Both the position numbers and the translations under genes were made by a program. A DNA stretch of 64,000 nt. It comes from Eledone cirrhosa (lineage: Eukaryota). Below the pieces are notes generated by a model that made no database searches, was not told the DNA's origin, and worked only from the letters and a program-made list of their open reading frames with translations. This document shows, one piece after another, positions 6,071-64,000 of the stretch; within the stretch, counting starts at the first letter, position 1; the number at the start of each line of letters is the position of its first letter. The stretch lies in NCBI GenBank assembly GCA_964016885.1, contig OZ024743.1, positions 312,232,001 to 312,296,000 of the forward strand. Direction: 5' to 3'.

Positions 6071-6747
6071 ATAAACAACCATCCGATTATTGAACCAACT
6101 AATCGAAAATTTGTAATAAATTGAAATGAAAACCAACAGGTGCATACGTTTTTATTGACAACATGACCCTCCTAAAGTATAACTATATGTTTCAACAAAC
6201 GTTTTCAGATAAGAAATCATGCAAAACAAATTAAAAAACGAAGTATATATATATAATAAAATTAACGGGGGTTGCTGGTGTTAATCAAACGGTCGCGGCC
6301 AGCATCTAGCTCACTCAATGAATTTGCCAATATATGATTTGAAATCAGAAGGTAAAGAAATACCACAGTAGCTAAATACCACAAGTTATTGTTTCCGACG
6401 TTCTACCTACTGAAAAGGATTTGTGTGTTCATTAAGGTCCAAATAGATTTTGGGGAAATCATATCACATCTGTTAGTTCATGTTAGTGTATAAACAAGTG
6501 TATGTCTGAACGAAGCATGCGAAATGTATTCGGTGAATTAGTAAATCCTTGAGCTTTTTCTTTGTCCGTTGTCATGTAATTTCAGTATTATATGTAAGGA
6601 CAGACACATTTAGTATTATATTTTTTTAGGTAAGTCCCAATAATGAAAGAATACCTTTTCGTTAACTATATTACAAAATCAATTAATTATTGCTAGGAAC
6701 CTAATAAATATAATACTCAACGAAATAGTTTATTCATTCGATATCTA

Positions 6748-16136: not shown

Positions 16137-17940
16137 TAGACCCATAAGAGGTAGACCCCCCACCATAACCTCAATGGCAAAAAAGACTCCCATGGGAAGG
16201 TGGATTGTGTACCAAAGCTATACGGACCCCCCAAAACAATGATTAGGTAAGAAAAATGGTCGCACATGCAATAGGGGCTCGTATCAAAACTACCCCAAAG
16301 GGCCACATATTCAAATTGAACGAGAAGATCTACACCCAAAATGAGGGAGCAGCCATTGGCGTCAGCATAGCTGGTGACGTTGCCAATCTTTTTATGGTAT
16401 GGTGGGAAAGGTGACTCAAAGATCTCCTTGATGAGAGCTCCATAGACCTCATCATGTACTCTCGTTACGTAGACCACATCAATATAGTAATAAGGACATC
16501 CCCACAAGAGAGCACTAACAAATTTGATTTAGAACGTAACACAATGGAAAGCATCCAGCAGATAGCTAATTCCATACATCAGAGTATATAACTCTAACTA
16601 TCGACAACCCTTCCAAACACCCTAACAATAGACTACCTGTATTAGACACGGAACTCTGGATTAACACTATAGACGAGAGAGCCCAAATTCTCCACTCACA
16701 CTATGCTAAACCCATGGCCTCTAAATACCTGATACTCAAAAACTCAGCAATGTCCAGTAGTGCTAAGTTTAATATTCTGATCGCAGACTTGGTACGAGTG
16801 ATGAAGAACGCGTCCCGCATGTGTGACCCAACAGAAATGGAAAGACACATCCAACACTTCATCAACCGCATGCAGTTCTCTGGCTACAACCAAATAGACA
16901 GAATCAGAGTATACGAAGGAGCCACGGAGAAGTATAAGACCCTCATAGAACTGGACATGAATGAATTTGCCCATTATACAGGAGCAAATCATGGAATAGC
17001 TTAGATAGGACTAGACAAAAGATAGGGAAATCCACCTCATGGTACGACAACCAGAGATACCAGAGTGTCATGTTTGTGGACACTACCCCTGGAGGGAAAT
17101 TAGCTAACCAGTGTAGAAAGGCCCTGAGAAAGACCCACTTAAAGATTAAGGTGGTAGAAAAGCCAGGAACCACCATAAAATCCCTGATCAGCAAAACCTA
17201 CCCTTTTAAGAAAACCCACTGTACTAATAGGAAATGTATCATATGTAAAGTAAACCCCCAGATAAACTGTAAAACTAGAAACGTAGTCTATAGCATAAGA
17301 TGTACAGAGGGTACTTGCAGAAACATGACAACAACATACATAGGCTAGACAGCTCGTAGCATAGGTGAAAGGATAGACCAACACCGGGGGGAACTAAAAG
17401 GACGAAAAAAAACGGTTCAGTACTATACGAACATGCCAGACAACAACACGACGGTAACATAGACAACATAGAAATTAGAATAATATCTAAACATAGAAAT
17501 GACCCAGCAGATAGGCAAATCATAGAGGCCAGCGAAATAGAACTTAGAAGGCCAAGGCTAAACAGAAAAAATGAATGGAATAACAACAACACCCAAACAA
17601 ACAACACTGACCTAAGAGAAGTATAAATAAATAAATAAATAAATAAATAAATACATACACAAGCACAATAACAACAAACACATATAAACACACACTAGAA
17701 AACTAAGATAGAATACAATAACCAATACACAGTCACCCAAACACGAACACACATCAAACAAAACACTATACACACACGCAAACGCATGCGCAGAGAAGAC
17801 AAAAAACAACAACAAATAAATAAATAAATAAACAGACTAAATAAAAATGGCGTAGGCATACAATGCAACGGGTGGAAACATAATAGCACCACTGACGATG
17901 TTGCAGATGTGCAACGAAAGAACTTTGTTAGACTATATAT
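16137..17940 (+). mobile_element. Degraded PLE (RT C-terminal half, GIY-YIG, 3' hammerhead); possibly Hydra clade
   Basis: HYAKPMASKYLILKNSAM...RMQFSGY; VMFVDTTPGGKL; CTNRKCIIC..NCKTRNVVYSIRC..TYIG. Stops and frameshifts present. CUGACGA-U-GUUGCA-GAUG-UGCAAC-GAAA at 17892-17919. Confidence 0.8.
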
Positions 17941-24249: not shown

Positions 24250-25800
24250 TTAACTAATGTATTGGTATGCGATGGGCCCACATACAGCCCCGGCGGGCAG
24301 AATGGAGAAGGCATTTCCTCGCAGGACGGCAAGGGAGACGCGCTGGAAAAGCCACTCCATCTCGCGGGACTCACACCTGCGGCTGGCCAGCTCAGCGCCT
24401 ATGGTGGTGAGTAAGGAGGTAGCCCTGGAGCCGAGGACACCAGAAGTCTTCACTGCCAGGGGAACGACCGCAAACCTGTCGGAGAGCGACCGGTATTTGA
24501 GGAGTTTGGCCCCTTCAGCCCGACGTGCAGCAGAACCTGGGTCAGTCGCAGACTGCACCAGGTTGCGGCTGTAGAAAGTGTCGGTGCAAGTGGCATCCTA
24601 GACGAGGGGTTTGCCACCGCGGAACGGGAAGATGGTCATGCCATGTGGCCTTTTGCCGTCCTCTCGATCCAGCCCCACCGGCTCGAGCTGGGAAGGTAAG
24701 CCTGCAGCGTCCAAGCCATGCTTAATGACCTCGTTGAGGGCAGCATGGCGTGGAATGCGGCCGGCACTGTGGAGACAGGAAAGCGGGTGGAGGCCAAAAG
24801 AGTCCACGGTGGAACCGCAGCGACATTGGTGTGGCTGGCAGATCGGGAGGCCGAGCCTCAGGGAAACGCCGATTCGCAGGCTATGGTTGTCTAGCTGCGT
24901 GCCAGTGGAGAAGGAGGGCAGGGAATGGACCCAGGCACCACTGTGGGGTTTGGAGGCCGCACGAAAACAAGCAAGGCGGTGCTGATCGAGCTGGCGCGTG
25001 AGTCTGTCTGAGGCCAGGCTGCACTGGATGGCATCCCAAGTGCGTTGGGGGGGGGGACTTGACGTCAACAGGGGGAGAAGGAGGAGGGACATCTACTGGG
25101 CTAAGTCCCAGCCGGTCCCACGTCTCACAGCCGGCCTCACGTTCTCTGAACACAGAGGGTTCTGTTATGTTTTGAAGAACCCTGCTAACGATGACGCGGC
25201 ACGAGGTTACCGACAAAAGATACGCCGGCAAAGCTAGTGAGATCGGGGATCGGAGACCAAAGCCGCCATACCTGACAGGTAAAGTGGCCTGTTGCCACCC
25301 TATGTCGTCAAACTTGACGTTGCATATCCCCTTGGCTGCTGCTCGGATACAAGTATCGAGGTCAGCGAGGAGAGATGTCTGGGAGTAGCATGGAGCGCTG
25401 CGGAGTGTATAGAGGAGCTTCGGCATGGCGAAGCAGTTCCTCAGCAGAAAGAGAGCTGGGTGGCCGTCAATCAAGCCCAGTCGGCTCGTAAGAGTCTGGA
25501 GCTGTTGAAGCCTGGACCTGATGGTGGAGCGGATGGCCGGCGGGTGGATCGGTGACCCGAGGATGAGGACATCCTCTTTGGGGTCACCTGAACCTGGCGG
25601 AGAATGGACCGCACGTCCAAGACGGAGGCTGCAAAGCTCGCAGCTTCGAGGCTGACGTTCACCACCTCTGACTTGGCCGAGTTGACCTGCAGGCCGACTC
25701 CCGCCAGGGCAGGAATCACCGATTGAAGGTCATGGCAGACCGACCGTATGGGCCCGCCCAACTTAGCATCATCCAGATACCAAACGCTGAGCGGAGCCTT
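24250..25800 (-). mobile_element. CRE-clade non-LTR retrotransposon, 5'-truncated and frameshifted
   Basis: WYLDD; LLRNCFAMPKLLYTLRSAP; QATLPVRYGGFGLR; CRCG..VD..GLHPLSC; DGKRP; WLFQRVSLAVLRGNA. Confidence 0.9.
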
Positions 25801-27753: not shown

Positions 27754-30700
27754 GATAAATCTACCAAAATGTACGGTAGTGTCCAATCCGTATGAAGAAC
27801 TCAATGTAATCCGAATATCATGAAAAGAGAAGATGTATTAAAAAAAATTTTTTTCCGATGAAAAATACAGGAAAACAGAGTCAAGATAAATTAATAAAAA
27901 TAATGAATAAAAACAAAGAAACAGTTCCTTATATTAAAAAATTCATTATTTTACGATCGTTTCTAGGATATATATGTTTGTGTTGGTATGTATATCATAT
28001 AGATCTATGTAAAATTTTTACAAACTATCAGAGGGAATATACATACCTACACATATATATGCTGTCTTCAGAAATAATGATATTTGTTTATTGAAAAAAA
28101 CCAACAAAGATTTAAAATAATAGGTCTGTTTGGGAACAGGTTTTGAATTGACCAATAGGAAGGTAGTAAGTGGTCAAGATGGTAGAATAGTAGTAATAGA
28201 ACTTTAATTTAGGGGTAGAGGAAAGCAGATTTCAGTTTTGAATGAAAGAGTATGATGAATGAAAAGATTATTTTAGGGGTGAAAATAGGTCAAGTCGGTA
28301 AAAGGTACACGAAAAATTGATGTTATAAAAGAATAATGCTAATGTAAATATCTAAGGAGAATAAAATTTTACGTTAAATGTGTTAGTGAAAAATATCAAT
28401 CTTATTTAAAATATAAGGAATTTACATCTATAAAAAGAAAATAAATTAATTAAATTGATAGGTATATTTATATTGATAAATTTATATTAATTCATATAGA
28501 TATGATAAATAAGAGTTAGATGTAATTGAAGAGTGCTGTTAAAAACGAAGGGAAAATTAAAAAAATAATAATTATTATTATTGGGGGCGGGGGGTAAATT
28601 TATTAGTGAGAAATAACAAATTTATATAGATTATAAGGAACATAGAATCATAACCTGAAATTAAAATAGTTTATATGTATACTTATTGGTATAAATTTTA
28701 GGAAAAGATAGCCATAAAAGGGAAATAAAATTATGCAGTTCTGTAGTAGAATATTAATTATAGGTTAAGTAATTTAAAAAAAATGTTATTATAATAATTT
28801 CTAAGGTGTATATTAATTAGGTTTATAATATTTAAAAGTTCTTCTCAGTTTATGATTACATGATATAATTAATTCCTGTCGTTTATTTAATAGGATATCC
28901 TTAGATTTCATTATTTCAAAAAGTTCCTGGGAACATAATCTACATTCATATCTATTATTTTGATAAGGGGTGGCCCTTTTGAGCACACTCCAGGTCAGGT
29001 TATAATCTATATTCCTTTTTCTATAATTATTAATTATTTCAGCTAAAGATGTTGTATTAGCTAATGCGGCATTTTTAAAACTGTGTTTGTGAGTATTAAA
29101 TCTTACTTTAAATTGGTTAGAAGTAGCTCCTATATATGAATAAGTTGAGTCCTTAGTGTTAACTTTACATTTATATACTATGTTATTAATAAGGCAATTT
29201 CCTTTTAATGGGCAATTTGCTTTGTTTCTACAGTTACAACCTTTCGTGAATGCTGTATCAGAGGAGATAGTCAAATTAGGTGTGGAATTTTCACGACTTG
29301 TTGTATGTGAATGAGATGGTGGTTTACTGTGGTTTATTTTAGTATTATGGTTAGTTTGATGTATTGGTGGTATATTCATGTTTTTTTTTTACATGTATAT
29401 GCATTATAGGCACTTATATTTTGTTGTATATTTTTGGTTGTTGAGTAGGAGAATTTAACCGTTGATCTATTTAAAATTTGATGGTATTTGTGGTTTGGCG
29501 GGAAGTTTTTCTCTAGGATAGTAAAAAATCTTTTAGGTATATTATCTTTAATTTGTAGATTAAATGGAGCATTATACCAAGTAACTCGTCTATTACGGTT
29601 TCGATGTTGTGTATTATTTTTATAGGATGTATCCTGATGTTTATTAAGAGAATTATTATTAATGATTTTATTACACATACTTTTAGTTAGATTCATTGAT
29701 TTAGGTGTTTTAGCCTGTTTATTAGGAATTTTATTATTAACATATATTGGAGTATTAGGATGAATAGTTTTTTGAAAGTTACTATATTGTATATTAGAAG
29801 AGTTAGAGAAATTAAGTTTTATGTTGGTATTTTTGGGTATAGTGTGAGTGGCATTTAGGTGTGTATATTTCATTTGGTGTTTGTTGGTAATATTGGGTTG
29901 TATGTTTGTAGTGTTATTGGTACAAGGTATATATACTAATTTATTTTTGTGGCCACTTCTAGCTAAAGCTTCGTTATAAAAGGTCGCATTTATATCAAAT
30001 ACATCCTGGTTAGACGAAAGGTTAGAAATTCTGAGTGAGATATTATATGCTAGGTTTTTAAGGATAGATTTAGGGTGATTAGATTGTGAGTGTATGTAAT
30101 GTAAGTTTTGGTTAGGTTTATGGTAAGGTTGGTAGATACCCGTAGATAAGTCTAATGTTATATCAAGGAAATTAACTACTTTACTTGTGTTTTCAAATGT
30201 AATATCTAGACTATAATAGTCTTTGAGGAAAGTTCTAATAAGTTTTTTATTTTTTTCAATTTCTGATAGGCTAAGGTTATTGGAAAGAAGAAGACAGTCG
30301 TCACGATATAAACCACCTTTGAGGTGGGGAAAAGAAGCATTTATGTTAAATAGAAGAAAGAGGCCCACAAGATTGGTAATTTGGGCAGAATCACTTGAGC
30401 CCATAGTAATGTCGAATAGATTACTATATGTGTTTCTGGTCCAGTATTCTTTTTGAAATTCCAGTAGTGTTTGTCTAGCATGTGTGATAATATTAATGTC
30501 ATCCATAGTTAAGTTTGATCTATTTTTGGCAAATATCAAGGCTTTGTTCAGGAGTATAGGTGATATAGAGGAATAATAAGTATCTATATCGAATTGTAGA
30601 AATGAAGCAGAAGATTTATTTCTAATATTAGTAAACCAGTTAATTACCTGGGATGTGTTTTCCCAGAGTGGTAAATTAACATGTTTTATTAATTGTGGGA

Positions 30701-31400
30701 TGACTCTATCTAAAATATTTTTACTAATGATGCCAATATCAGATTTGGAAGGGCATATAAGCCTTATAGAAGGATTAGAGTTAAAGTTAGATTTGTGATC
30801 TTTCAGGTTAAAATGTGGTTTTTTCAGTGCCAAAGGTTCAGTTCTATCTTCAATATTAAGTCTATTTACTATGTTGTGTGTTTTGTTGTTGGTGTTGGTA
30901 AGTGCCGCATTGTTTGTTTATTTATAATTTTTCCTGAGTTCTTTATATATGAACTCATTGTAATTATCAATATCCATGTGATACAGATTTCCAGTTTTGT
31001 CAGAGTGGACATGGATTTTGTTAGATTTTTTTAGATCCAATAGAGTAGAATCAAGATCCTTTTGAAAATTAGATTTATACTTCTTAAATTTGAGGTGTTT
31101 GATGAAGTTAAAAAGGTCTTTCTCAAAGTTTTCAAGTAAGGAGTTGTGTGGTTGGTTTTTATATGTAGTGAAATCATATAAATATTTCTTATCAGTACAT
31201 TTTGTTTTTTTATCGAAGTGGTAGGCCCTCCATCTGACCCTTTTGATGAATTGGTTGGTTTTTTGTATCATAAGAAGTAAGAATTCATCCTTAGAAGGTA
31301 TTGGTATATTCTTTAAAGAAGTTCCCAAGTATTGTTTTTCCATTGTGATATGGATAATGGACAAGAAAAAGAGCTCAACTATATATATAGGGAGTTATAA
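27750..31400 (-). mobile_element. Near full-length Nematis-type PLE (RT and C-terminal GIY-YIG) with long 3' UTR/pLTR
   Basis: SLKNIPIP, SDKTGNLY, FDIDTYY, ITMGS, LYRDD, FLDITL, CNCR..CPL..NC, YIG, CRLC, LNKRQEL. One in-frame TAA at 30918-30920 and a frame break at the A10 run (29381-29390). Confidence 0.93.
27943..28080 (-). ncRNA. Type I hammerhead with ~100-nt stem II (second copy 33956-34093, plus)
   Basis: UCAUUAUUU-CUGAAGA-[long hairpin]-GAAA-CGAUCG-UA^AAAUAAUGA. 9-bp stem I and palindromic stem III. Confidence 0.8.
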
Positions 31401-31419
31401 AATTATATATATATATATA

Positions 31420-34143
31420 TAGCATGTGTGATAATATTATCACACATGCTAGACAAACACTACTGGAATTTCAAAAAGAATACTGGACCAGAAACACATA
31501 TAGTAATCTATTCGACATTACTACGGGCTCAAGTGATTCTGCCCAAATTACCAATCTTGTGGGCCTCTTTCTTCTATTTAACATAAATTCTTCTTTTCCC
31601 CACCTTAAAGGGGGTTTATATCGTGACGACTGTCTTCTTCTTTCCAATAACCTTAGCCTATCAGAAATTGAAAAAAATAAAAAACTTATTAGAACTTTCC
31701 TCAAAGACTATTATAGTCTAGATATTACATTTGAAAACACAAGTAAAGTAGTTAATTTCCTTGATATAACATTAGACTTATCTACGGGTATCTACTAACC
31801 TTGCCATAAACCTAACCAAAACTTACATTACATACACTCACAATCTAATCACCCTAAATCTATCCTTAAAAACCTAGCATATAATATCTCACTCAGAATT
31901 TCTAACCTTTCGTCTAACCAGGATGTATTTGATAAAAATGCGACCTTTTATAACGAAGCTTTAGCTAGAAGTGGCCACAAAAACAAATTAGTATATATAC
32001 CTTGTACCAATAACACTACAAACATACAACCCAATACTACCAACAAACACCAATGAAATATACACACCTAAATGCCACTCACACTATACCCAAAAATACC
32101 AACATAAAACTTAATTTCTCTAACTCTTCTAATATACAATATAGTAACTTTCAAAAAAAGTTAATATATGTTAATAATAAAATTCCTAATAAACAGGCTA
32201 AAACACCTAAATCAATGAATCTAACTAAAAGTATGTGTAATAAAATCATTAACAATAATTCTCTTAATAAACATCAGGATACATCCTATAAAAATAATAC
32301 ACAACATCGAAACCGTAATAGACGAGTTACTTGGTATAATGCTCCATTTAATCTACAAATTAAAGATAATATACCTAAAAGATTTTTTACTATCCTAGAG
32401 AAAAACTTCCCGCCAAACCACAAATACCATCAAATTTTAAATAGATCAACGGTTAAATTCTCCTACTCAACAACCAAAAATATACAACAAAATATAAGTG
32501 CCTATAATGCATATACATGTAAAAAAAAAACATGAATATACCACCAATACATCAAACTAACCATAATACTAAAATAAACCACAGTAAACCACCATCTCAT
32601 TCACATACAACAAGTCGTGAAAATTCCACACCTAATTTGACTATCTCCTCTGATACAGCATTCACGAAAGGTTGTAACTGTAGAAACAAAGCAAATTGCC
32701 CATTAAAAGGAAATTGCCTTATTAATAACATAGTATATAAATGTAAAGTTAACACTAAGGACTCAACTTATTCATATATAGGAGCTACTTCTAACCAATT
32801 TAAAGTAAGATTTAATACTCACAAACACAGTTTTAAAAATGCCGCATTAGCTAATACAACATCTTTAGCTGAAATAATTAATAATTATAGAAAAAGGAAT
32901 ATAGATTATAACCTGACCTGGAGTGTGCTCAAAAGGGCCACCCCTTATCAAAATAATAGATATGAATGTAGATTATGTTCCCAGGAACTTTTTGAAATAA
33001 TGAAATCTAAGGATATCCTATTAAATAAACGACAGGAATTAATTATATCATGTAATCATAAACTGAGAAGAACTTTTAAATATTATAAACCTAATTAATA
33101 TACACCTTAGAAATTATTATAATAACATTTTTTTAAAATTACTTAACCTATAATTAATATTCTACTACTAATGAACTGCATAATTTTATTTCCCTTTTAT
33201 GGCTATCTTTTCCTAAAATTTATACCAATAAGTATACATATAAACTATTTTAATTTCAGGTTATGATTCTATGTTCCTTATAATCTATATAAATTTGTTA
33301 TTTCTCACTAATAAATTTACCCCCCGCCCCCAATAATAATAATAATTATTTTTTTAATTTTCCCTTCGTTTTTAACAGCACTCTTCAATTACATCTAACT
33401 CTTATTTATCATATCTATATGAATTAATATAAATTTATCAATATAAATATATTTCGTTTCTGAATTTGTTTAGCAAGATTCTTTATCTGAAATCGTGTGT
33501 TGAAGTGAAACAACTGGTGCGTGTGTTTCTTATTGGCAACATGACCCTCCCAAAGTATAACAATATAAATATACCTATCAATTTAATTAATTTATTTTCT
33601 GTTTATAGATATAAATTCCTTATATTTTAAATAAGATTGATATTTTTCACTAACACATTTAACGTAAAATTTTATTCTCCTTAGATATTTACATTAGCAT
33701 TATTCTTTTATAACATCAATTTTTCGTGTACCTTTTACCGACTTGACCTATTTTCACCCCTAAAATAATCTTTTCATTCATCATACTCTTTCCATTCAAA
33801 ACTGAAATCTGCTTTCCTCTACCCCTAAATTAAAGTTCTATTACTACTATTCTACCATCTTGACCACTTACTACGTTTCTATTGGTCAATTCAAAACCTG
33901 TTCCCAAACAGACCTATTATATTAAATCTTTGTTGGTTTTTTCAATAAACAAATATCATTATTTCTGAAGACAGCATATATATGTGTAGGTATGTATATT
34001 CCCTCTGATAGTTTGTAAAAATTTTACATAGATCTATATAATATACATACCAACACAAACATATATATCCTAGAAACGATCGTAAAATGATGAATTTTTT
34101 AATATAAGGAACTGTTTGTTTTTATTCATTATTTTTATTAATT
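31420..34143 (+). mobile_element. 5'-truncated second copy of the same Nematis-type PLE, inverted relative to the first
   Basis: The 188-aa GIY-YIG ORF (32532-33098) is identical to 28813-29379. Starts with a perfect 32-bp palindrome at 31420-31451. TAA at 31796-31798. Confidence 0.93.
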
Positions 34144-34447
34144 TATATATATATATATATAGAGAGAGAGGGAAAGATGCTTTGTACGGCTTTTGGAGGA
34201 AGGAGTGACCAGCAGTACGTTGTTCTGTATTATTACGAAAAGGTGCAGCAGAGAATCCCGTGTGAACTAACAGTTCGGGAGGAAAATGCTTATCTCGAAC
34301 ATTCATTCGCCATCGTTCTTGTCAACGCTCCGTTTTTTGGTATTTGTTGGTCTACAGTTAGATGAATGGCGCACAAAGGGTTAATGTTTATTGGCAAGAA
34401 TTTTTTGAATAATAAAAGACGGGTTAAAGCAACCTACAATGTATCTG

Positions 34448-35281
<834 letters not shown>

Positions 35282-37225: not shown

Positions 37226-37382
37226 GGATACTATTTATGGTTATGTATATACTAAAACTTTTTATAGTTATGTATATTTTAAACCCTAAACAGTGAAGGT
37301 CAGTAATTTATTACTACCTTATTACCAGTAAGATGAATAGCTCAATGTAATAACATCATTTGTTCTACAGAGCAGTTATATA

Positions 37383-38964
<1,582 letters not shown>

Positions 38965-38966
<2 letters not shown>

Positions 38967-39419
38967 GGAGGTGAGTTTTATTGAAGGACAATAAAACTAT
39001 GCATATATCGGACAAGTAGCACTCAACAGTTTATTAGACTGGAGTATATATAAGAAGAAATTAAAAGATGGTTAATAAAGTTCCATATATTTTATTATAC
39101 GCATTTCAAAAACAAATATCATCCTGGGACGATAGTTGCGTTCTCATCAGATAAAATAAGGTAACAGGATATGATGCCTAAAAAACACATGTGAACAAGG
39201 AAGTGTACATCAACATATGATAAATAAATATAAAAGGATATAGAAGATTGGAAAAAAAGGAAGGAAGAAGAAAAAGGGAAAAAGAAGGAGAAAATAACGC
39301 AGAAAAAATTTAAGAAGGAAGGAGGAGAGAGAAAGAGAAAGGAGAGAGAGACATTTAAACTGGAAACGCTGTCAAAACTGAAAAACAGCTGTGAATAACG
39401 GCTGGAAAAAAAAAAAAAA

Positions 39420-39453
<34 letters not shown>

Positions 39454-40850
39454 GGCTACTAAATAAATAAACTAAAAAATTGATGAGGTTTATGATATAT
39501 GATGTTTATGATTACAGATATAGAACCTAGGTATATTATTTATTTAGGGTTTATATACTAAAAGATTTATTAAGAGGTGTGAAAATGTATTATTAAAATA
39601 AAATAAAATAAGATAAAGTAAAGTAAAATAAAATTAAATGATTAATAAGCGTAGAAGACGATATAATGTCCTAGTGTGTTTAAATAGAATGTAATTGAAA
39701 AAATATTTCTGTGAAAAAGTATATATGTGTAGAAGGAAATAAATAAGGGTAGACCGATAATGTCAACAATTAAAAGTTTACTATTAAAAAATTACAGATT
39801 ATATATAAAAAAATTTATTATAGATTATATATAAAGGAATTATATATGTGGGAAAACTATTTAAATATTTAAATATTAAATTAATCCACAAGTAAATAAA
39901 GGAAAATGTTATAATTATTTAAGCGTAGAAAAAAGAAAAACATCTGACGTCATAATTTGTTTACAAAATCAACTAATGTTTATACTGATTAAATTGAAGT
40001 GATAAATGAGGAAAGAGAGCGGCTTAAAAAATATAATAATGAGAAAAAATAATATAAAGAAACATTAAATATGAACTATCTAAATAATATTTTGTATCAC
40101 CAAGTAGATAAAGGAATTTGCTAGAGTGATTTAAAAAGTAGAGGACCAAATAACGTCATAGTATGTTTAAGAACTTTGTAGAATGTACTGAAATATGCGA
40201 GAAAAAGGTATTTGTGTAAAAAACATATATATGTGTGAGAAAATTTTAAATCTTAACCATGGAATAAGATATAGGGTATTAGGTGTATACTTTGTGAAAT
40301 GACTTAAGAGATTTATGGATGCAGAGAGAAAATAAATCGGTGCGTCTATTTATTATAGGGTTGAAATTCGAGATAATGGTAAATTTTTCAGCTAGACATA
40401 AATTACAAGCCCTAGATATGGAAGCGTTAGAATATGGAGAAGCATTGCATATTTGACGCCAAGAAATTTTGTCATTCATGTTTTTGTCTTTTAAGGACCA
40501 GATGAGTTCTGAGAGTGCAGTGTTTGTTCTTTTAATTGGATATTTAAAAGAGGAAGAATGGTTATATAGTCTTGATTTAAAGGAAGTAGAAGTAGAGCCA
40601 ATGTAGGTATAAGAATTGGTACTAGTTAGCACCTTACATTCGTATACTAGATTTTTATCGAGACACAAATTATTAAGAGGACATTTAGTTCTATTAGGGC
40701 AGTTGCATTTACGATTAATGTGAACAGAGTTATTTGCAAGTGGCCCAGGATTATTTATAATAGGAATTGTAGTGGTGGAATTATCTAAAGGAGGTGCTAA
40801 TGTTTCCTGAGTTAGATTACTATTGAATTATCTTAATAATTGTCTATATA
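38965..40850 (-). mobile_element. Nematis-type PLE 3' part (GIY-YIG ORF 40279-~40800, 3' UTR, pLTR)
   Basis: CNCPNRTKCPLNNLCLDKNLVYECKV..YTYIG..RLYNH..CNLCLAEK..INRRTDLFSLCIH. Confidence 0.88.
39088..39158 (-). ncRNA. Type I hammerhead in a Nematis pLTR
   Basis: UAUUUUAU-CUGAUGA-GAACGCAACUAUCGUCC-CA-GGAUGAUAUUUGUUUUU-GAAA-UGCGUA-UA^AUAAAAUA. Confidence 0.8.
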
Positions 40851-42726: not shown

Positions 42727-45105
42727 CGGAGGAAATGTGGTAAGGAACCAGGTGGACCATAACGCACCAAAGTACTCAATACTTAGGGTAGTAGAGTGGG
42801 TAATATGACCGAGTAGGACCCCGACGGCTGATCTCAAGCCGTTTCGACGGCTAATTCTGGAGTAAACGAAAATTTTTATCCTGGTATTTGTATAGCCGAG
42901 CTTCTCAAGGGGTAATTCCATATATGGTAAAAGTGATTGTCACAAGGATTGGTCAAAAGTTTGTTGTTGAGACATAATAATTCTATCATGGCAATTTGTG
43001 GAGGGAAGGGGTAGCTGAACCTGCCAGTAGGAGAAAGAGGGAGAGGGGGTGGAGGAGACCCAGTCATGCATTGATAGTCCCGACTACAGCTGGGCATGAA
43101 GTCAAAGAAGATATTAGGGAGGGGGAGGGGGAGGAAGTCGAAACAATAAGTAAAACTATATGGGGTAAATGTATAGAAAAATACCGAGAGTGTTAAAAAG
43201 CAATTAAATGTAAAAAAAAAAAAATAAACAATTTCTGGTTACTACGACCTAAGGACAGCTATCAAGTCTCTCACTGGTACTGCTAGGCTAAAGAAAGGTT
43301 TACTAGGTGGGACGGAATTATAATGAGACCCTTTTAAGAGGTATAAGTAATAAACCGAGTATATCTTACGGTGACGGGTCAACAAGTGAGGGGCCAAAAT
43401 ACTAAAGAAACTACCACGAAATAAGAAATAAAGGTTTCTACCCCAGGCACAAGGCCAGCAACCACCCAGTGCAAAAAAAAAAAAACTAATACGAAATAAT
43501 AATTCAGAATCCCGAAAAAGAATACTAATACTATCTCTAAGGGTGCCGCCACGATACAAAAATTCTAGTGCATATACCCTTGACCTCGATAATGATCTGT
43601 ACTACCCATACAGGAAACCTAACGACAACCTGCACTACATCCACCGCCGGTCAAACCATCCTAGGAACATCACCAATAACCTGGTTAAAAACATCTCCCT
43701 CGGCATATCCCGTTTGTCAGCTAATGAGCAGATATTCGAGGAACACGCGCCTTATTACAACCAGGCCCTCAAGCGGAGTGGTTTCCGGGAGGAAATATCC
43801 TACTGTCCAGCTTCCATTAGCGGAACCAGCAGGCGACACCGCCGCTCACGCAATGTAACATGGTTCAATCCTCCCCACAACGCCGAGGTGACAACTCCTA
43901 TCGGGAAAATCTTCTTTAGGCTCATTGAAAAACACTTCCCACTACAACACCGCTACCACAACATAATTAACAAAAATACCATCAAACTCTCTTACAGCAC
44001 CACACCAAACTTTGCACAAAACATCGTCTCCTCTAACAACAAAACCTCAACCCCTATGGAAGAAATAACCTAAATAGCAGTGGAGAGCCGACCAGGGGGT
44101 ACAACTGTCCTGATGAATCCATTTCCCCCCTAGACAACAGATGCAGAGATCGTAATGTGATCTACCAGTGCAACGTGAGGACGGACACCTCCAACAAAGC
44201 TTATATAGGATTAACCGCGTGTGACTTCAAGACCCGGCTATACCAACACAGACATACCTTCCGAAACCCGGCCCGGCGTCACGCCACTACACTTTCGGGC
44301 CACATATGGGACCTCAAGGATAACAACATTACCTATGATCTCACTTGGAGCTTACTGTCCAGAGCCAACTCTTACACGGGAGGACGCCGTCCGTGCAATT
44401 TATGCTCGGAGGAAACTTTACAAGTGTTGTTTTCGACGGACCAACTCCTAAACAAGAAAGATGAACTGGTTACTGCATGTAAACACTGATTGCGTAGGAC
44501 TTACCTCGCCCTCAAACCCCATAATGACAGAGGGGGGGGGGGTTAGACTAGGGCTATAACACCCCACTTGCCGATTTCGTAATGGGTCACCCCTGCTTGC
44601 AAAGGTAGAGGTAAGATCTTCTTTTATATCTTTTTATCGCGTCCTCTATATTTCTTTCTTCCCCCCATCCCTCCCTAGTCCTTCCACCCCAGTCCTCTTT
44701 CTTTGTCGTCGTCCTTTTCATTTTCTCGCCCACCCGAGGCAGCCCCTCGGTCCTTTGTAGCCTCAGTACCCCCACCCCCTTCCTCTATTCTATGATAGAT
44801 TTGGCCGACTCCGCTTTTTATAGCAGATGTGTTAGACCCCGCATACTTGCCTTCTTATCCGATCGCTGCCCCTTTTCCGTGCTCTCTATATTTCTTAGTG
44901 GTATCTTTGCTTTAATTTCTCGTATATCAGTATTTATTTTTTTTTTTGGGGGGGGGATTCTGAATTAATTTTCCGTATCAAATTTTACATATACTTCGTA
45001 CGAGCATTTATGTAGTTTGCACTAGAATTTTTGTATCGTGGCGGCACCCTTAGAGGTAGTATTAGTATTCTTTTTCGGGATTCTGAATTATTATTTCGTT
45101 TTCAC
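42722..45105. mobile_element. Nematis-type PLE with 5' inversion (pLTR on minus 42722-43571; RT thumb and GIY-YIG on plus ~43575-44500)
   Basis: YPYRKPNDNLHYIHRRSNHP, VTWFNPP, KLSYS, AYIG, CNLCSEE. An ~80-bp inverted overlap lies at 43490-43571 vs 45018-45100. Confidence 0.88.
42818..42913 (-). ncRNA. Type I hammerhead with U3-A8 core
   Basis: ACCCC-UUGAGAA-GCU-CGGCUA...UAGCCG-UC-GAAA-CGGC-UUGAGAUCA-GCCG-UC^GGGGU. Confidence 0.8.
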
Positions 45106-50920: not shown

Positions 50921-50928
50921 TATATATA

Positions 50929-53534
50929 TGTAGCGAAATCTATCCGCGCCTTGAACCTTGAGTGACACCTAAAGATCAAATTCTAGGTCAACACCCTTTT
51001 GGTATGATCAAGTTCATGCGTGGGCTGTCCCTTCAGGTTGGGGGACAGGAAGTGACAGCTATATATAGAGCCTGTACCATCCTACTTTAGCCAGATACAT
51101 CGGAGCATTACACCTATAACAAACTATGTAAGGATTCACTGCTATCAATAGACCCCAGTGGTCTACAGCCAGAATCATCGGAGCATTACGCTAGCAACTA
51201 ACTATGTAAGGATTCACTGCTATCAATAGACCCAGTGGTCTACAGAAATACCCAGAGCGATTGGAGCCCTATTACTACAGAACACAAATGTGGAAGATTT
51301 ACCGTTGTTTGCAGGCCACGGTAGTTCACAGTTACGACAGACCATAACAGAGGTATACAAACCATCTCTCTCTCTCTCTTACTAACTACGGTCTCACAAC
51401 TACTACCACGGACTCCAAATTCCAACAACAACAACAATTATCTGTCGCTCGCTGTTTTCACACCACCAACAACAACAACAGACTGCAACAGCCTCACATC
51501 AACGACAAAATAATATTGTCAATCTTTGTAACTTATGGTAACTTGTTTATTGTACCTTTTAATTGATTCACGTGAAGTAAACCATATATAAACTAAAATC
51601 ATTTATTCATTATATTCTCGTTATTACACCTATTCTTATTATACTTGTTATTTCATCTAATAACCATGTTACCTCATCCAACATCTAACTATTACTTAAT
51701 TCATTTTAACCCTTCGTTAAATTGGTAAACCCCGACGTGATTTAAAAAAACAAAACAAAAAAAAAACGAACTGGTATTTAAAAAAAAATTAAAATAACAC
51801 GCAGCCTATTTGATCTGATCATGGTTTTATTTGCCAACCTCAGCAATATACAGTTACCAAACACTTCACCACTTGCTTCGTAATCTCCAACAACAACAAC
51901 AAACAATACTACTAGCTTCCTAACAAGAAAACAGAACTTTTTGTAAAGAACAATTATATAAATATTTTTTTACAGGTTGTATATGAATGTCATTTTTATT
52001 TTTTTTTATTCATTTTACTGTATTATATGCCTGTATGAATAACACGTTTGGCATCAAACACATATAATTTTCCTTGTCACACACCAACATGTTTATGTCT
52101 GTGGTATATTCTGGATTCGGTGGGGTCTCTGCGGGATCACCTTTCGATTGGTCAAGGTACGGCGAAAGCTATGAAACACATGATAATCAGCCCACGGTTA
52201 CTTTTAGCTCGACTCACTGAGCACGCAACTCAAAATTGCACACACTCATGTCATAGCATAAACCTCGACTCACGGGAAGGGAATCTTACGTATGATAATA
52301 CATTGAGATTCAACTGGTCAAGGTTCGACAATAGCTATTTAACACATGATAATCAAACCACGGTTACTAATCGCTCGACTCACTGAGCACGCAACTAAAA
52401 ATTGCACACACTCATCTCATAGCGTAAACCTCGACTCACTGAAGAGAATCTTACGTATGATGATACATCGAGAGAAATAGTCCTCTGTGTTATCATATCG
52501 TAATCCGATACCGTAACCCATCCATCCATACACAACAGTTCGAAATACCTGATCACAACTTTGTATTTTTACAGTTCCTTCTAAATGTTACACACACACA
52601 TGCATACTCAGTTATACTATTTTTTTTCTCTCTCTCCAAATTTCTCTACACTCAAAGTGCGAGCGCAGTACCCACATTTTGTGTGCTTTGGGACACGCTT
52701 CTAGGAATCAGATTTCGCTACCTATTTTATAATAGATCGCTGCTCCAGCATCGATCTGGGTAGGGAACTAATGTAGCGAAATCTATCCGCGCCTTGAACC
52801 TTGAGTGACACCTAAAGATCAAATTCTAGGTCAACATCCTTTTGGTGTGATCAAGTTCATGCGTGGGCTGTCCCCTCAGGTTGGGGGACAGGAAGTGACA
52901 GCTATATATAGAGCCTGTACCATCCTACTTTAGCCAGATACATCGGAGCATTACACCTATAACAAACTATGTAAGGATTCACTGCTATCAATAGACCCCA
53001 GTGGTCTACAGCCAGAAACATCGGAGCATTACGCTAGCAACTAACTATGTAACGATTCACTGCTATTAACAGACCCCAGTGGTCTACAGAAATACCCAGA
53101 GTGATTGGAGCCCTATTACTACAGAACACAAATGTGGAAGATTTACCGCTGTCTGCAGGCCACGGTAGTTCACAGTTACGACAGAGGTATACAAACCATC
53201 TCTCTCTCTCTCTCTTACTAACTACGGTCTCACAACTACTACTACGGACTCCAAATTCCAACAACAACAACAATTATCTGTCGCTCGCTGTTTTCACACC
53301 ACCAACAACAACAGACTACAGCAGTCTCATAAACCAACAACAAAAACATTGTCAACCTTAACAACTCTTGGTAACTGTTTTATATGTACTTTTTAATTGA
53401 TTCACGTGAAGTAAACCATATATAACCAAATCATTTATTTCTCTATTATTATTGTTATTTCCTCTAACAACTTTGTTATAATCATATCTAAATAACCACA
53501 TATAACCATCTAATTAGTTACTTATACCCTTCGT

Positions 53535-53561: not shown

Positions 53562-53568
<7 letters not shown>

Positions 53569-54532
53569 TATCCACGGTAAATTGTGGGGTTAGTCTGCAT
53601 GAAGAACTCAATGTAATCCATATGTTGAAAATGTTGTAGGTTAAAATAAATCCCGGAAAACAATAAAACATTAAAAAGAAAACAGAGTCATGATATAAGT
53701 TAAAACAATGAAATAAAAAATCAAGTCATTAGAAATATACTTCACTGTTTTACGATCGATTCTAGGTGATGATAATACATCGTAACTATACTTCGATATC
53801 GACCTATGTAAGGTTAGTTACAAAATATCAGATAAAGAGAATATTTACTTACATGCATATCACCACCTGTTTTCAAAAGCAATAATAATTTTATTCAAAA
53901 TTAGTAGTAAATTAGTATTATGTTTAGTTCTATGACCTTGTTTGGCGGTAGTTGAAGAACTAACCAATCAGATTGTTTTTTTTCCATATGATGTTAAGAT
54001 GAAAAATAAATCTCTTTAGTTGAGGTCATGACCCTTTGAAAGGAATGGTTGAATGGTGTTAATAACAGAATTACCATAAAAAATATATTAGGAAGAAAGG
54101 GATTGTCAAATTGATAGTTAAATGTGTGTATAGGTGTGTATATATATAAATGTGTGTATAGGTGTGTATATATATATATGTGTGTATAGGTGTGTATATG
54201 TAAATATATATATATATGAATATATGTGTATATGATTGTGTGCACATGTGTAGATGTATGTATATGTTTGCATCTATTTATGTGTATGTATAGTTTTAGT
54301 TGAGTATCAATATAACTATCTATAATGTGGGTACATGCACTTTGTGATCTATATTCACCTAAATCGAATAGAATGAAACGAAATTTCATTTCTCACTCTT
54401 AGTACGGCACTTACTTAAATGTAAGTATGTATGTATGTATACGTACATACATATATGTATACAGACGTACAGTAGTATGTATATATATACATACATGCAC
54501 ACATATATATATATATATGCACGTATCGGTTA

Positions 54533-60569: not shown

Positions 60570-61430
60570 TATTATGTTAACGCCTGATATAGCAGGAAGA
60601 GGGTCTTAACGTTTCAGACGATAGTCCTTCATCAGAAAAAAGAATGAGAAATAAGATAGATTGAGGGGACGGGTGGGTTGGAATTGAAAAAAATGTCTTT
60701 AGATAAAAATAACAGATCCATTCATGTTGACATCTCTTGCAAAACTGTTGGTGCTGGCGTTTTGTGTATGATTTATTTTTTTTAGAAAAGTGGATGATGG
60801 AGCGCGTCTACCTGGATGAAGCAGGAAGCCATGCGAAGGGAATGGGTTTCGAAATCGTCGTCCTGGCTACAGAGTCGACGAAGACGGGGCAATTGGGAAT
60901 AGGGTATGGAGTGTTTGGGTGTGGGTTGATGGGAGGAAGTGAAGTCGAGGTAAGATTGGGAGTCTATTGGTTTAATGAAGATGGAAGTAGAGAGGGTGTG
61001 GTGAGAGTGATTAATAGATAGAGAGATATCTAGAAAAGCGACAGAAGAATCAGAGACGGAGGAGGTGAAATTGAGAGCAGGATGGAAAGATTGGACAAAA
61101 GAAAGAAAACAGTCGAGCTGTTCTGGTGATAGAGAGGTGGCGCCGATACGGTCGTCGATATAACGACCGTATCGCTCAGGAGTCGGTCCAGCGTACTGAG
61201 AGAAGATCTGAGCTTCGACGTAGCCAACAAACAAGTTGGCATAGTTTGGACCCATTTTGGTTCCCATCGCTACCCCAGCGTCTTGATGATAAAATTCACC
61301 CGAAAAAGAAAATCCATTAAGGGCGAGAAAAACCTCAGCCAGACGGAGAAGAGTGGTAGTGCTGGGGTAAGGGGTAGGGCGTAAATCTAAAAAATGTTAG
61401 AGAGTGCGGAGGCCGTCATCATGAGGGATG
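60570..61430 (-). mobile_element. Neptune-type PLE, 5'-truncated; RT joined directly to the pLTR (GIY-YIG missing)
   Basis: MGTKMGPNYANLFVG..RYIDD..FLDISL..YLDFTSSH..SIPYSQL.RLRRLCS. Confidence 0.88.
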
Positions 61431-61769: not shown

Positions 61770-64000
61770 TCTATCTAAGGCGGGTAAAATTCCCGAGATC
61801 CATGGACGAGTTCTCTCCAGCGGTCTCTGTCTCTCATTATCGCTGCCATGTCCTGCGTCTCCAACAGACCAGTGTCTGTCCTTAGGGCATCAACATACGT
61901 TAACCTTGGTCTTCCTCTTCTAGTGTGTCCATGTAGGGGCTCCCAAAGGAGCACTGAGTGCAATGTCAACTCTGGATGTCGGTGAGCATGTCCAGCTAAC
62001 CTCAGTCTCCTCTGTATCACTTTTGAGCTGACTTTTGGGATGCTCCCATACAGCTCTGAGTTTTTCATCCTCAGTGTATACTGATTAATGTTCAGAGCCA
62101 TCCTCAGCATTCTCGTGTAGCACCCATCCACCATCTGAGTGAGTTTCTTGGTCAGTGTCCAAGTCTCAGACCCATACAGCAGCACAGACTCCACTACAGC
62201 AATGAAGAGGCGGACCTTCAGGTCTCTACGAAGGTCCGACTTCCACACCGATCTCAAGCTGTGGCACGCCGCCCAGGCCTTGCTCTTCCTCTCAACCACA
62301 TCATCTTCCGTATTCCCAATCTCTGCTCCCAAATACAGGAAGCCCTCAACCAGTTCTAGCGGCTTCCCGCCTACATTAGTGATCCCCTCTGGTTTCTCAA
62401 CATTCTCTACCAGATATTGTTTTAGTCTCATTCATTCTCAGCCCCACACTCATCGACACAGTCTCAACCTCCCGCATCAAATACTCTGCCTCCTTCACTG
62501 TATTTGTCACTAAAACTATGTCGTCGGCAAATTCAGCATCCGATACCTTTTTCGCCCTAACTCTCCTGCTCTGAGCCGGTGCTACAGTAAAGCCAGAGTC
62601 CTGGTGTTTCTCCAGTGCAAGGCGCATACAATAGTCCACTACGATGATAAAAAGGTAGGGAGCCAATGTATCTCCCTGGAGCACTCCAGCCAGTACCTCA
62701 AAGAACTCTGTCATCCCATCAGGTGTAATGACTTGGGCTTTGGTGTTGGTGTAGAGCAGTGATATCAGGTCCACTATCCTCTTGGGGATTCCATAAGCCT
62801 GTAAGATCTTCATCAGGCAGTAACGGTCCACAGAATCAAAGGCCTTCCTAAAGTCAATGAAAACTATGACCGCAGGAAGGCACTTTTCTCTAGCTCCCTC
62901 TAATATCCTCCTCAGCATCAGGATGTGACTGGTGGTTGATCTACCCTCTCTGAAGCCGTTCTGGTTGTCCCTGAGCTTCTTCTTCATCTCAGGCTAGATC
63001 CTGTTAAGAATCATCCTGTTGAGGGTCTTTGTCACAAGTGACGTCAGTGAGATCCCCCTGTAGTTGTTGGTGTTAGAGAGATCTCCCTTCTTTGGCACTG
63101 GGACGATGTTACTGATCCTCCACTGATTCGAGGCAACTCCTCTCTCCAGTGCCCCGTTACAGAACCCCAGGATGATATCATCAAAATCACACCTCTTCAT
63201 CACCTCTGATGCCACTCCATCTTCTCCATGAGCCTTGCCCTCCTTGACCCTCTTCTTGGCTCTCTGAAGCTCCTCTCTGGTGAAGGGCTCTATCTCAACA
63301 TCCAGTTCCTCAAACAGCCGCCTGATCTCCCCAGTGCTCTGGGCTGTGGGGGGTGGCTCTCCTAGTAGGGTCCTAAAATGGTCTAGCCATTTCCTCTTCC
63401 TATCCTCGGGCCCCGTTCCCTGGATCTGACTTGAACACCTTCTCTTCCTCCCTGTGATCCCGTCAATGATCATCCAGCTCTCCTTACATCCAGATCTGTC
63501 AACCGCTCTCTCCACACTTCTGATCTTCTCTATCAGTGCCTCCTCTCTGACCTCAGTGTAAGCGGTACAGAGCTCTTCCCTCATCACCTCCCCAGTCTCC
63601 ATCCTCTCCTCCGTAGGATCAGCATAGAATTGGTCCTTGGCAGCTTTCAGGTGTTCTCTGGCTGCACACACTTTTGGGTTTGCAGAGCTGACGTGCTTCC
63701 CTTTGTTCTTTTTCCTCGGCACCAGGGTTTCACTTGCTTCCGCCACTGCATTGGTGAAGTGCCCGTACCTCCTCGTCACACTCTCCTCAGTCCATCCAAT
63801 CTCTCTCTCCTCTGACTCTCCACACAGAGCACTAAACCTGTTTCTCACTTCCACTGTGAACCTCTCCTGTAGCTTATCATCTTCCTTGAAAGCTCCCCAG
63901 TCATAGATTGTTCTCCGGGGCTGAGCCTTGCTCTTTCTTAAGCTCACCCGGACCTCACTCATAACAAGCCGGTGGTCACTACCCAGTGTACTGAAATAGT
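61770..64000 (-). mobile_element. Young RTE-group LINE (RT and C-terminus), continues past the window edge
   Basis: PVPKKGDL..NYRGISL, QNGFR.GRST, FIDFRKAFDS, GVLQGDTLAPYLF, FADD, LLYGSETW, RLAGH. Only one TAG (62994-62996) and one frameshift (~62430). Confidence 0.93.

Follow-up and report, generated by a model that had tools for sequence, protein, structure and literature searches.

Two hammerhead ribozyme motifs, A and B, in the window (the whole 64,000-nucleotide stretch of Eledone cirrhosa DNA analysed here) are confirmed by sequence comparison as real and related; both are type I hammerheads, and each lies in a Penelope-like element's 3' pseudo-LTR. Taken together, the results make it likely that A and B belong to sister families of the Hydra clade, that U3-A8 is family-wide in family A, that the ribozymes cleave as dimers, that their stem II has been expanded, and that hairpins further downstream position the reverse transcriptase (RT). 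The motifs and their parts are located as follows.

53742..53885, minus strand: hammerhead A, type I; stem I pairs 53885-53877 with 53750-53742, and the predicted cut is after A17 (53751).
53870..53876, minus strand: core strand UUGAAAA of A, read from the sequence, with U3 at 53876 and A8 at 53871.
53763..53869, minus strand: stem II domain of A, 107 nt.
53801..53832, minus strand: apex of stem II of A, UCUGAUA-N-UUUGUAA ... UUACAUAGAUC, shared with B.
53751..53762, minus strand: GAAU of A (GAAA in the family), palindromic stem III CGAUCG, U16.1 and A17.
27943..28080, minus strand: hammerhead B, with CUGAAGA (C3 at 28071), a 101-nt stem II (28064-27964), GAAA, CGAUCG and UA.
28032-28002, minus strand: apex of stem II of B.
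33956..34093, plus strand: hammerhead B2, a second copy of B that the earlier note does not mention, its stem I differing by one U-A to U-G change.
53563..54120, minus strand: copy A, an ORF-less, 5'-truncated 3' pseudo-LTR fragment ending in (TA)n; its 5' limit is approximate.

Along A, the first strand of stem I is followed by UUGAAAA, stem II, GAAU, CGAUCG, UA and the second strand of stem I (9 bp). The cores of B and B2 are canonical and that of A is a U3-A8 variant (YUGANRA ... GAAA ... UH with a 3-8 pair). Folding placed three stems around the core in both A and B, with stem I open, and the folding z-scores were -4.33 for B and -3.60 for A, with none of 200 shuffles equally stable. A strict hammerhead descriptor found 5 matches in the window, whereas all 20 locally shuffled windows gave 0. 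Neither motif was matched by any Rfam hammerhead model at E up to 10, as would be expected for a stem II of about 100 nt. The earlier note on this DNA had described both motifs with their stem III, stem II, apical hairpin and two different cores, and all of these are present on the minus strand; its placement of both in pseudo-LTRs also held, both being on the sense strand of Penelope-like elements, within the 3' pseudo-LTR.

The two cores occupy equal positions in homologous sequence, with alignment scores far above those of shuffles and the end hairpin shared downstream. The local alignment of A with B scored 207 versus 55 +/- 9 (maximum 92) for 200 dinucleotide shuffles, and stem II alone scored 58 versus 24.6 +/- 4.5, a value reached by 0 of 1000 shuffles. 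The collinear flanks claimed before are clear on the 3' side (103 versus 42 +/- 6; 0/300 shuffles as high) and weak on the 5' side (46 versus 34 +/- 5; 8/300 shuffles as high).

The host element is best read from B, which has both a coding region and an inverted partner copy.

28813..31343, minus strand: RT and GIY-YIG ORF of element B, Hydra clade, in three pieces (stop at 30920-30918, frame change near 29380).
31432..34146, plus strand: duplicate of element B in inverted orientation and truncated at the 5' end, about 98% identical, which carries hammerhead B2 and ends 4 nt before hairpin 1.

Hammerhead B lies about 740 nt downstream of this broken ORF, in which the break is a TAA stop. Unit B (about 31410-27756) starts in (TA)n just before hairpin 2, measures about 3.65 kb, of which the 3' region takes up 1 kb, and exceeds the size below 3 kb that is typical of Hydra elements; each of A, B and B2 ends in (TA)n. 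No ORF was found in copy A. The pieces of the ORF of B were not recognised by Pfam, a search among longer proteins gave no match, and no Hydra relatives were found in viral contigs. The ORF carries RVRWRA, SDKTG, FDITMGSSDSAQITNLVG (RT4(B)) and FDITMG and is without GxKF/Y; its linker CNCRNKANC corresponds to CxCX5C and CRLC ... CNH to CxxC/CxH, with one cysteine inside the GIY-YIG motif, as judged by eye. In the available text of Craig et al. (2021; PMC8557442), the Hydra clade is marked by an RWK-type motif, DKT, a divergent RT4(B), CxCX5C and CxxC/CxH, has no GxKF/Y and no CCHH, inserts into (TA)n and is generally shorter than 3 kb, and the Nematis clade is marked by a CX2-5CxxC linker and DKG. 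By these residues, element B is a Hydra-clade element. The earlier note had called the elements Nematis-type, an assignment that now has almost no probability: the ORF of B lacks both CX2-5CxxC and DKG, possesses the Hydra marks RT4(B), DKT, CxCX5C and CxxC/CxH, and the twin hairpin motif described below is visible in the published Hydra consensus text as well. Family A would be placed in the Hydra clade by its homology with B, and the hairpin motif points the same way. The head-to-tail units, each with a type I hammerhead, that make up a non-LTR retrozyme were not found for A, which is a single fragment in the window.

Other mobile sequences also occur in the window. Two further Hydra-type endonuclease or RT remnants lie at 40279-40827(-) and 43432-44489(+); the former is 37% identical to the endonuclease of B and lies upstream of the hammerhead at 39150. 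A segment of about 130 nt at 33430-33560, in the 3' region of B2, is absent from B, has a partial match at 6121-6264 and is probably a small inserted element. Remnants of other retroelements at 16570-17348(+), 60782-61396(-), 24598-25729(-) and 61775-62993(-) include what we take to be non-LTR RT pieces, an RT piece of Poseidon or Neptune type and a piece of a Penelope-like element with GIY-YIG. The segments 50928-51625 and 52771-53459, immediately downstream of copy A, are direct repeats of one another (about 700 nt, 92% identity, 78-nt subrepeats inside) and may be long terminal repeats belonging to a further element. The window also holds hammerheads of at least seven other families, with stem II from 13 to 56 nt, at 35061(+), 39150(-), 38295(-), 46932(-), 37464(-), 42908(-), 41968(+) and 41871(-). 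Among them, both copies of the 37464(-) family read CCGAAGA (U4C); 42908(-), with UUGAGAA and a stem III of 6 bp, could work as a monomer; and the 41968 family has UUGAAAA and a palindromic ACCGGU stem III. In 38295(-), the 50-nt stem II ends in the apical loop ACUCC, which equals the 5' strand of its own stem I and could compete for the 3' strand GGAGU.

The exchange of the 3-8 pair between A (U3-A8) and B (C3-G8), as proposed earlier, is seen directly in the sequence. Among the alignable pairs, 64/66 cells are paired (97%) versus 33-47% when the alignment is slid, and both unpaired cells are private changes of copy A. The two-sided changes in the three rows are the 3-8 pair and one pair of stem I; stem I has one two-sided change (two with the family letter at 53748) and three one-sided ones. 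The observed covariation was equalled by 52/500 shuffles and is not significant with two families and three rows. At positions 5-12 from the base of stem II, 6/8 pairs differ on both sides; the base arms of A and B are unalignable by sequence, and those of B are a self-complementary (AU)n run. The compensatory change put forward for the stem II base is thus sound in that the arms exist and pair, and weak as covariation because the arms cannot be aligned and include the (AU)n run; stem I is the better covariation evidence. Selection on the fold, also claimed in the earlier note, is very likely, the statistical weight given there to two families being overstated (52/500 shuffles).

The recurrence of the exchanged pair in other families supports the 3-8 covariation better than the statistics of the A/B pair. 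U3-A8 recurs in unrelated motifs of the window, at 42908(-) and in the repeat family 41968(+)/41871(-). For a wider comparison, a metagenome set of 78 Hydra loci was taken from the best 80 of 339 confirmed stretches. When positions 3 and 8 were left free in a scan of these 78 loci, 47 distinct sense-strand motifs from 52 loci were returned, and 46/47 of them were Watson-Crick at 3-8 (best 80 of 339): 45 had C-G, one U-A (L020) and one U.G, the last inside an ORF and lacking a folded stem II. In the antisense control there were five matches, among them a genuine inverted copy that has U3.G8 (L061); this single-sided state means that half of the swap can arise by decay.

Whether the swap in A belongs to the family or to the copy was addressed with reads. 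Family A was surveyed in two contig sets (from one sample) and two RAD read sets against 53566-54120 at 80% likeness; 40 of 199 differences were listed, the weakest of these at about 46-50% in the best run, and the RAD reads begin at only about 30-50 places and are not independent. Reads and contigs indicate that the family is high-copy. At 53759 (A>T), 415/418 reads give the family GAAA instead of the GAAU of copy A, and at 53748 (T>C) the C-G pair of stem I is regained in 397/432 reads. The GAAU and the stem I mismatch of copy A are private decay, as the earlier note had supposed for GAAU, and the core and stem I of the family majority are intact. In stem II, 53866 (C>G, 242/246 reads) brings the family nearer to B (CAGC) with C.C in place of G-C, and 53803 (C>T, 342/352 reads) makes it match the B apex (UUACAUAGAUC). 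The family letters at 53803, 53856 and 53791 change G-U to A-U pairs and that at 53796 gains a pair; variants at 53800 and 53785, in about half of the reads, disrupt predicted mid-stem pairs. Read depth climbs over a 21-nt block at 53599-53641, where loose ends come from other families sharing the block, which implies more relatives of A and B in the genome.

Neither 53876 (U3) nor 53871 (A8) is among the differences listed (40 of 199), with about 130 and 80 reads in the bin, and from this we infer that U3-A8 is the majority state; it looks family-wide in family A, and a C3-G8 minority below about 45% may exist compatibly with the differences listed. It is improbable that U3-A8 in A is instead decay, that is, two independent transitions in a dead lineage whose ribozyme is unselected. 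C>T and G>A are the most frequent substitutions, copy A has several private lesions, the single-sided U3.G8 copy L061 exists, and the states at 53871 and 53876 are deduced from their absence among the differences listed (40 of 199). Against this, the other private lesions stand out as near-fixed differences in the reads (94-99%) and the two core positions are absent from rows reaching down to about 46%; GAAA and stem I are regained in the family majority; and U3-A8 is found in unrelated families, including a large Schistosoma family with about 1,300 matches in the available text of Cervera and de la Pena (2014; PMC4209133). The same sources show that the core swap is already known, including in Penelope-like hammerheads, and is not new: U3-A8 is natural and active in vitro as far as reported in the accessible text of Perreault et al. 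(2011; PMC3088659), and occurs in Penelope-like elements (PMC4209133). Its occurrence in A merely confirms a known tertiary pair.

The stem II domain is far longer than in relatives, 101 nt in B and 107 nt in A, the Hydra-like motifs of the window having stem II of 20, 26, 30, 36, 50, 56, 101 and 107 nt. The metagenomic Hydra motifs have stem II domains of 9-25 nt (47 motifs, 78 loci, best 80 of 339), and the free scan of the 78 loci (best 80 of 339) found no sense-strand domain above 25 nt. A relaxed scan of 18 of the 26 motif-less loci (best 80 of 339) found no long or variant hammerhead. Long-arm relatives were sought with a core-gap-stem III pattern in metagenome contigs and with an apex pattern in viral contigs, with no match in either, and five 17-mer matches in bacterial genomes were discarded as chance, all being without core or stems. 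A long stem II in retroelement hammerheads was not found in the paper texts consulted; both the very long stem II and the end-marking hairpin appear to be undescribed. At four to ten times the length usual in Hydra motifs, the long arm would be the largest stem II found in this analysis for a Penelope-like hammerhead, and it would offer a natural experiment on the function of such arms.

At its base, stem II of A and B has in common a C10.1.A11.1 mismatch, two base pairs and then C.C (in A, in the family majority); the same closing mismatch is found at 38295. A 10.1-11.1 mismatch is frequent in Hydra motifs, with U.U in 22/44 (best 80 of 339 set). At the other end, the apices of A and B fold into the same hairpin, the sequence of which is invariant between them and therefore gives no information on pairing, and the flanking helices stay paired despite sequence turnover. 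The long stem II would represent a lineage-specific expansion that kept a stable helix and a conserved apex. A SECIS element has a UGAN/NGAN quartet, an 11-12 bp helix and an in-frame UGA, and a kink-turn a 3-nt bulge with a C-stem. Neither identity was retained for the apex: there is no Rfam match, the upper helix is too short, the ORF break is TAA and the G at 53803 is uninformative.

The apex, perhaps the whole arm, might also be a DNA promoter module of the pseudo-LTR, looped out so that the ribozyme tolerates it, a reading that we regard as tentative. The apex never varies and holds TGATA(G/T) and TTACATAG, words that we take to be GATA-like and bZIP-like, and ATTGG, presumably a reverse CCAAT, is kept about 85-90 nt upstream of the core in both families. 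Pseudo-LTRs are promoter carriers according to the available text of PMC6765202 and PMC3846280. Against a module acting as DNA, both apices give the same hairpin, and the helices beside the apex keep pairing though their sequence has changed.

Common to A and B downstream of the ribozyme are GACUCUG and a block identical at 21/21 positions that contains UUGAGUUCU. This region holds one of a pair of hairpins, of which the following were located.

53603..53688, minus strand: hairpin 1 of family A, ACUC ... GAGU-U-CU, with the loop expanded to about 74 nt.
27796..27881, minus strand: hairpin 1 of family B, ACUC ... GAGU-U-CU, with the loop expanded as in A.
31370..31395, minus strand: hairpin 2 motif of element B, about 30 nt before the ATG.

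In the metagenomic Hydra loci (best 80 of 339), GCUCY-N5-16-RUYGAGCACUYU occurs twice between the ribozyme and the ATG, the first time about 40-60 nt and the second time about 100-130 nt beyond the cut site; the second motif stands about 20-45 nt before the ATG. The motif gave 129 sense versus 14 antisense matches in the 78 loci (best 80 of 339). In the same best 80 of 339 set, TTGAGYNCT is present in 28/42 ribozyme-downstream stretches versus 0.17 expected, GCTC accompanies GAGC in 86/105 distinct 3' arms (14 are without a 5' arm), and the hairpin arms are invariant. The spacer length ranges between 5 and 16 nt, except in A and B, where it reaches about 74 nt. Within the window, ACUC/GAGU forms the arms in A, B, 34611(-), 27595(+), 39045(-), 42797(-) and 15757(-); the arms at 37373(-) are GCUC/GAGC, and those before the ATG of B are ACUC/GAGC, so that hairpin 2 of B has an A.C mismatch. 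Most window families thus show a compensated G-C to A-U change (ACUC/GAGU), which is a single covarying pair. It may have been a single event; the three endonucleases of the window group together (94/91) in a tree of the analysed sequences drawn with no named references. The tail segments are no stabler than shuffles (z -0.09 and -0.28), and a second ribozyme in the tail was rejected for want of a stable fold. The words 'hairpin', 'stem-loop' and 'GAGC' do not occur in the main text of PMC8557442, and the twin hairpin is not described in the open-access literature covered, including the available text of PMC3846280 and of bioRxiv 10.64898/2026.07.22.740005.

The ends of element copies coincide with these hairpins. 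End mapping yielded 20 rows, and copies were counted when they end inside the contig and have a two-hairpin reference. All 8/8 mappable copies (L023, L026, L044, L046, L056, L061, L065 and L066), from seven families of the best 80 of 339 set, stop 2-5 nt before a hairpin. Left out were four contig ends (including L073, 3 nt before hairpin 2), four reciprocal rows of the same events, and L058/L063, which break at 116 and neither of which has a second hairpin, related families having that second hairpin at 122-125. A possible exception is L008/L010, also left out as lacking a two-hairpin reference, which diverge 37 nt beyond hairpin 1. Among copies in the window, the distance from the end to hairpin 1 is 4 nt for B2, 2 nt for the 35061 copy and about 8 nt for the 38017 copy, all of which stop before it. 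Family-A molecules enter (TA)n at 53693, 4 nt before hairpin 1 (20 and 23 contigs, 29 reads), and loose ends at this position were found in the sets X1, X2 and X5. The shared position of the hairpin relative to the ends settles the positional homology of A and B. Some 5' ends, those of the L025, L026 and L065 units and of the window unit at 31410, also lie in (TA)n, 8-13 nt before a hairpin; such ends, near unit-length copies, could come from a circular template or from homing into the own leader of the element.

The twin hairpin probably positions the RT and explains the optional tail, as far as the mapped ends can tell. Each hairpin downstream of the cut site would set the RT start 2-5 nt upstream of it, and because copies end 2-5 nt before either hairpin 1 or hairpin 2, the optional 'tail' would equal the spacing between the two. 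If the 3' end is the RT start, then with (TA)n targets that lack the motif the signal would be read on the RNA. Opinion is evenly balanced on the fuller reading, also drawn from sequence, that a clade-wide duplicated hairpin binds the telomerase-related RT in a template-boundary-like manner and specifies two 3' ends, that stem II and the hairpin 1 loop of A and B grew by 60-80 nt with the arms kept or compensated, and that the apex is a new conserved module serving as a tertiary contact or protein site. [quoted passage not shown] The motif is nearly invariant, which suits protein recognition of sequence, only one pair covaries, some 5' ends lie 8-13 nt before the hairpin (L025, L026, L065), and the Penelope tail is reportedly needed for endonuclease recognition, as cited in the available text of PMC11167929. 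However, the ends are fixed to the motif and the (TA)n targets are without it, so that they would be set on the RNA; the variable spacer (5-16 nt and about 74 nt) fits a hairpin better than a dimeric DNA site; and the G-C to A-U change is compensated. Penelope-like elements are the sister group of telomerase RTs, and a motif that positions the RT would address internal start choice and tail formation. Being short and clade-wide, with a fixed 2-5 nt offset, it makes the RT start testable in an existing in vitro assay and would give curators of Hydra elements a boundary rule.

In the proposed mechanism, A and B would be the ribozymes of two sister families of Hydra-clade Penelope-like elements, and family A would have fixed U3-A8 for C3-G8, keeping the tertiary pair that the core needs. 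With a stem III of two base pairs and the palindrome ACGAUCGU, cleavage would occur mainly as a dimer of two pseudo-LTRs or two transcripts, perhaps assisted by protein, and would process a tandem precursor RNA. For B, the energy of the active dimer (-78.2 kcal/mol) is the same as the free cofold minimum, and two free monomers (-66.8) are 11.4 less stable. For the decayed A, the active dimer is not favoured (-73.8 versus -74.2 for two monomers and -77.6 for the free cofold). The palindromic stem III and dimer cleavage have been described in PMC4209133, with which the review PMC6765202 agrees, in the text available from both.

Several properties of A and B are those of known Penelope-like hammerheads. 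As far as the available text of PMC4209133 goes, these are likewise type I, placed in the pseudo-LTR on the sense strand and have a short palindromic stem III, and in the Cercyon hammerheads of Schistosoma U3-A8 replaces C3-G8 in some families. Helix II is there 7-8 bp with G10.1-C11.1, whereas in A and B a C.A mismatch closes a domain of 101-107 nt that also contains a C.C mismatch and the apex. The same core swap is found in PMC3088659, with no tie to Hydra elements or a long stem II in its accessible part. Other Hydra-clade hammerheads share the place, the (TA)n targets and the inverted 5'-truncated partner copy, but the Hydra rows seen of File S2 (PMC8557442) all have C3-G8 and a loop 2 of 3-10 nt, unlike A and B; the long arm and the CGAUCG stem III are found in A and B and in none of the other Hydra hammerheads compared (File S2; best 80 of 339). 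In the Poseidon element PAc, as described in the available text of Frangieh et al. (2024; PMC11167929), the RT has an internal start and two such starts delimit the tail; the RNA that is required extends to the 3' side of them, the hammerhead is protein-assisted, and insertion in vitro does not need ribozyme cleavage. The Hydra elements would resemble PAc in that two RT starts downstream of the ribozyme define the tail. PAc starts in an AC-rich stem-loop inside the ORF, whereas in Hydra elements the untranslated leader holds the twin motif, with one copy following each of the ends, and the tail measures about 60-70 nt and about 130 nt in A and B.
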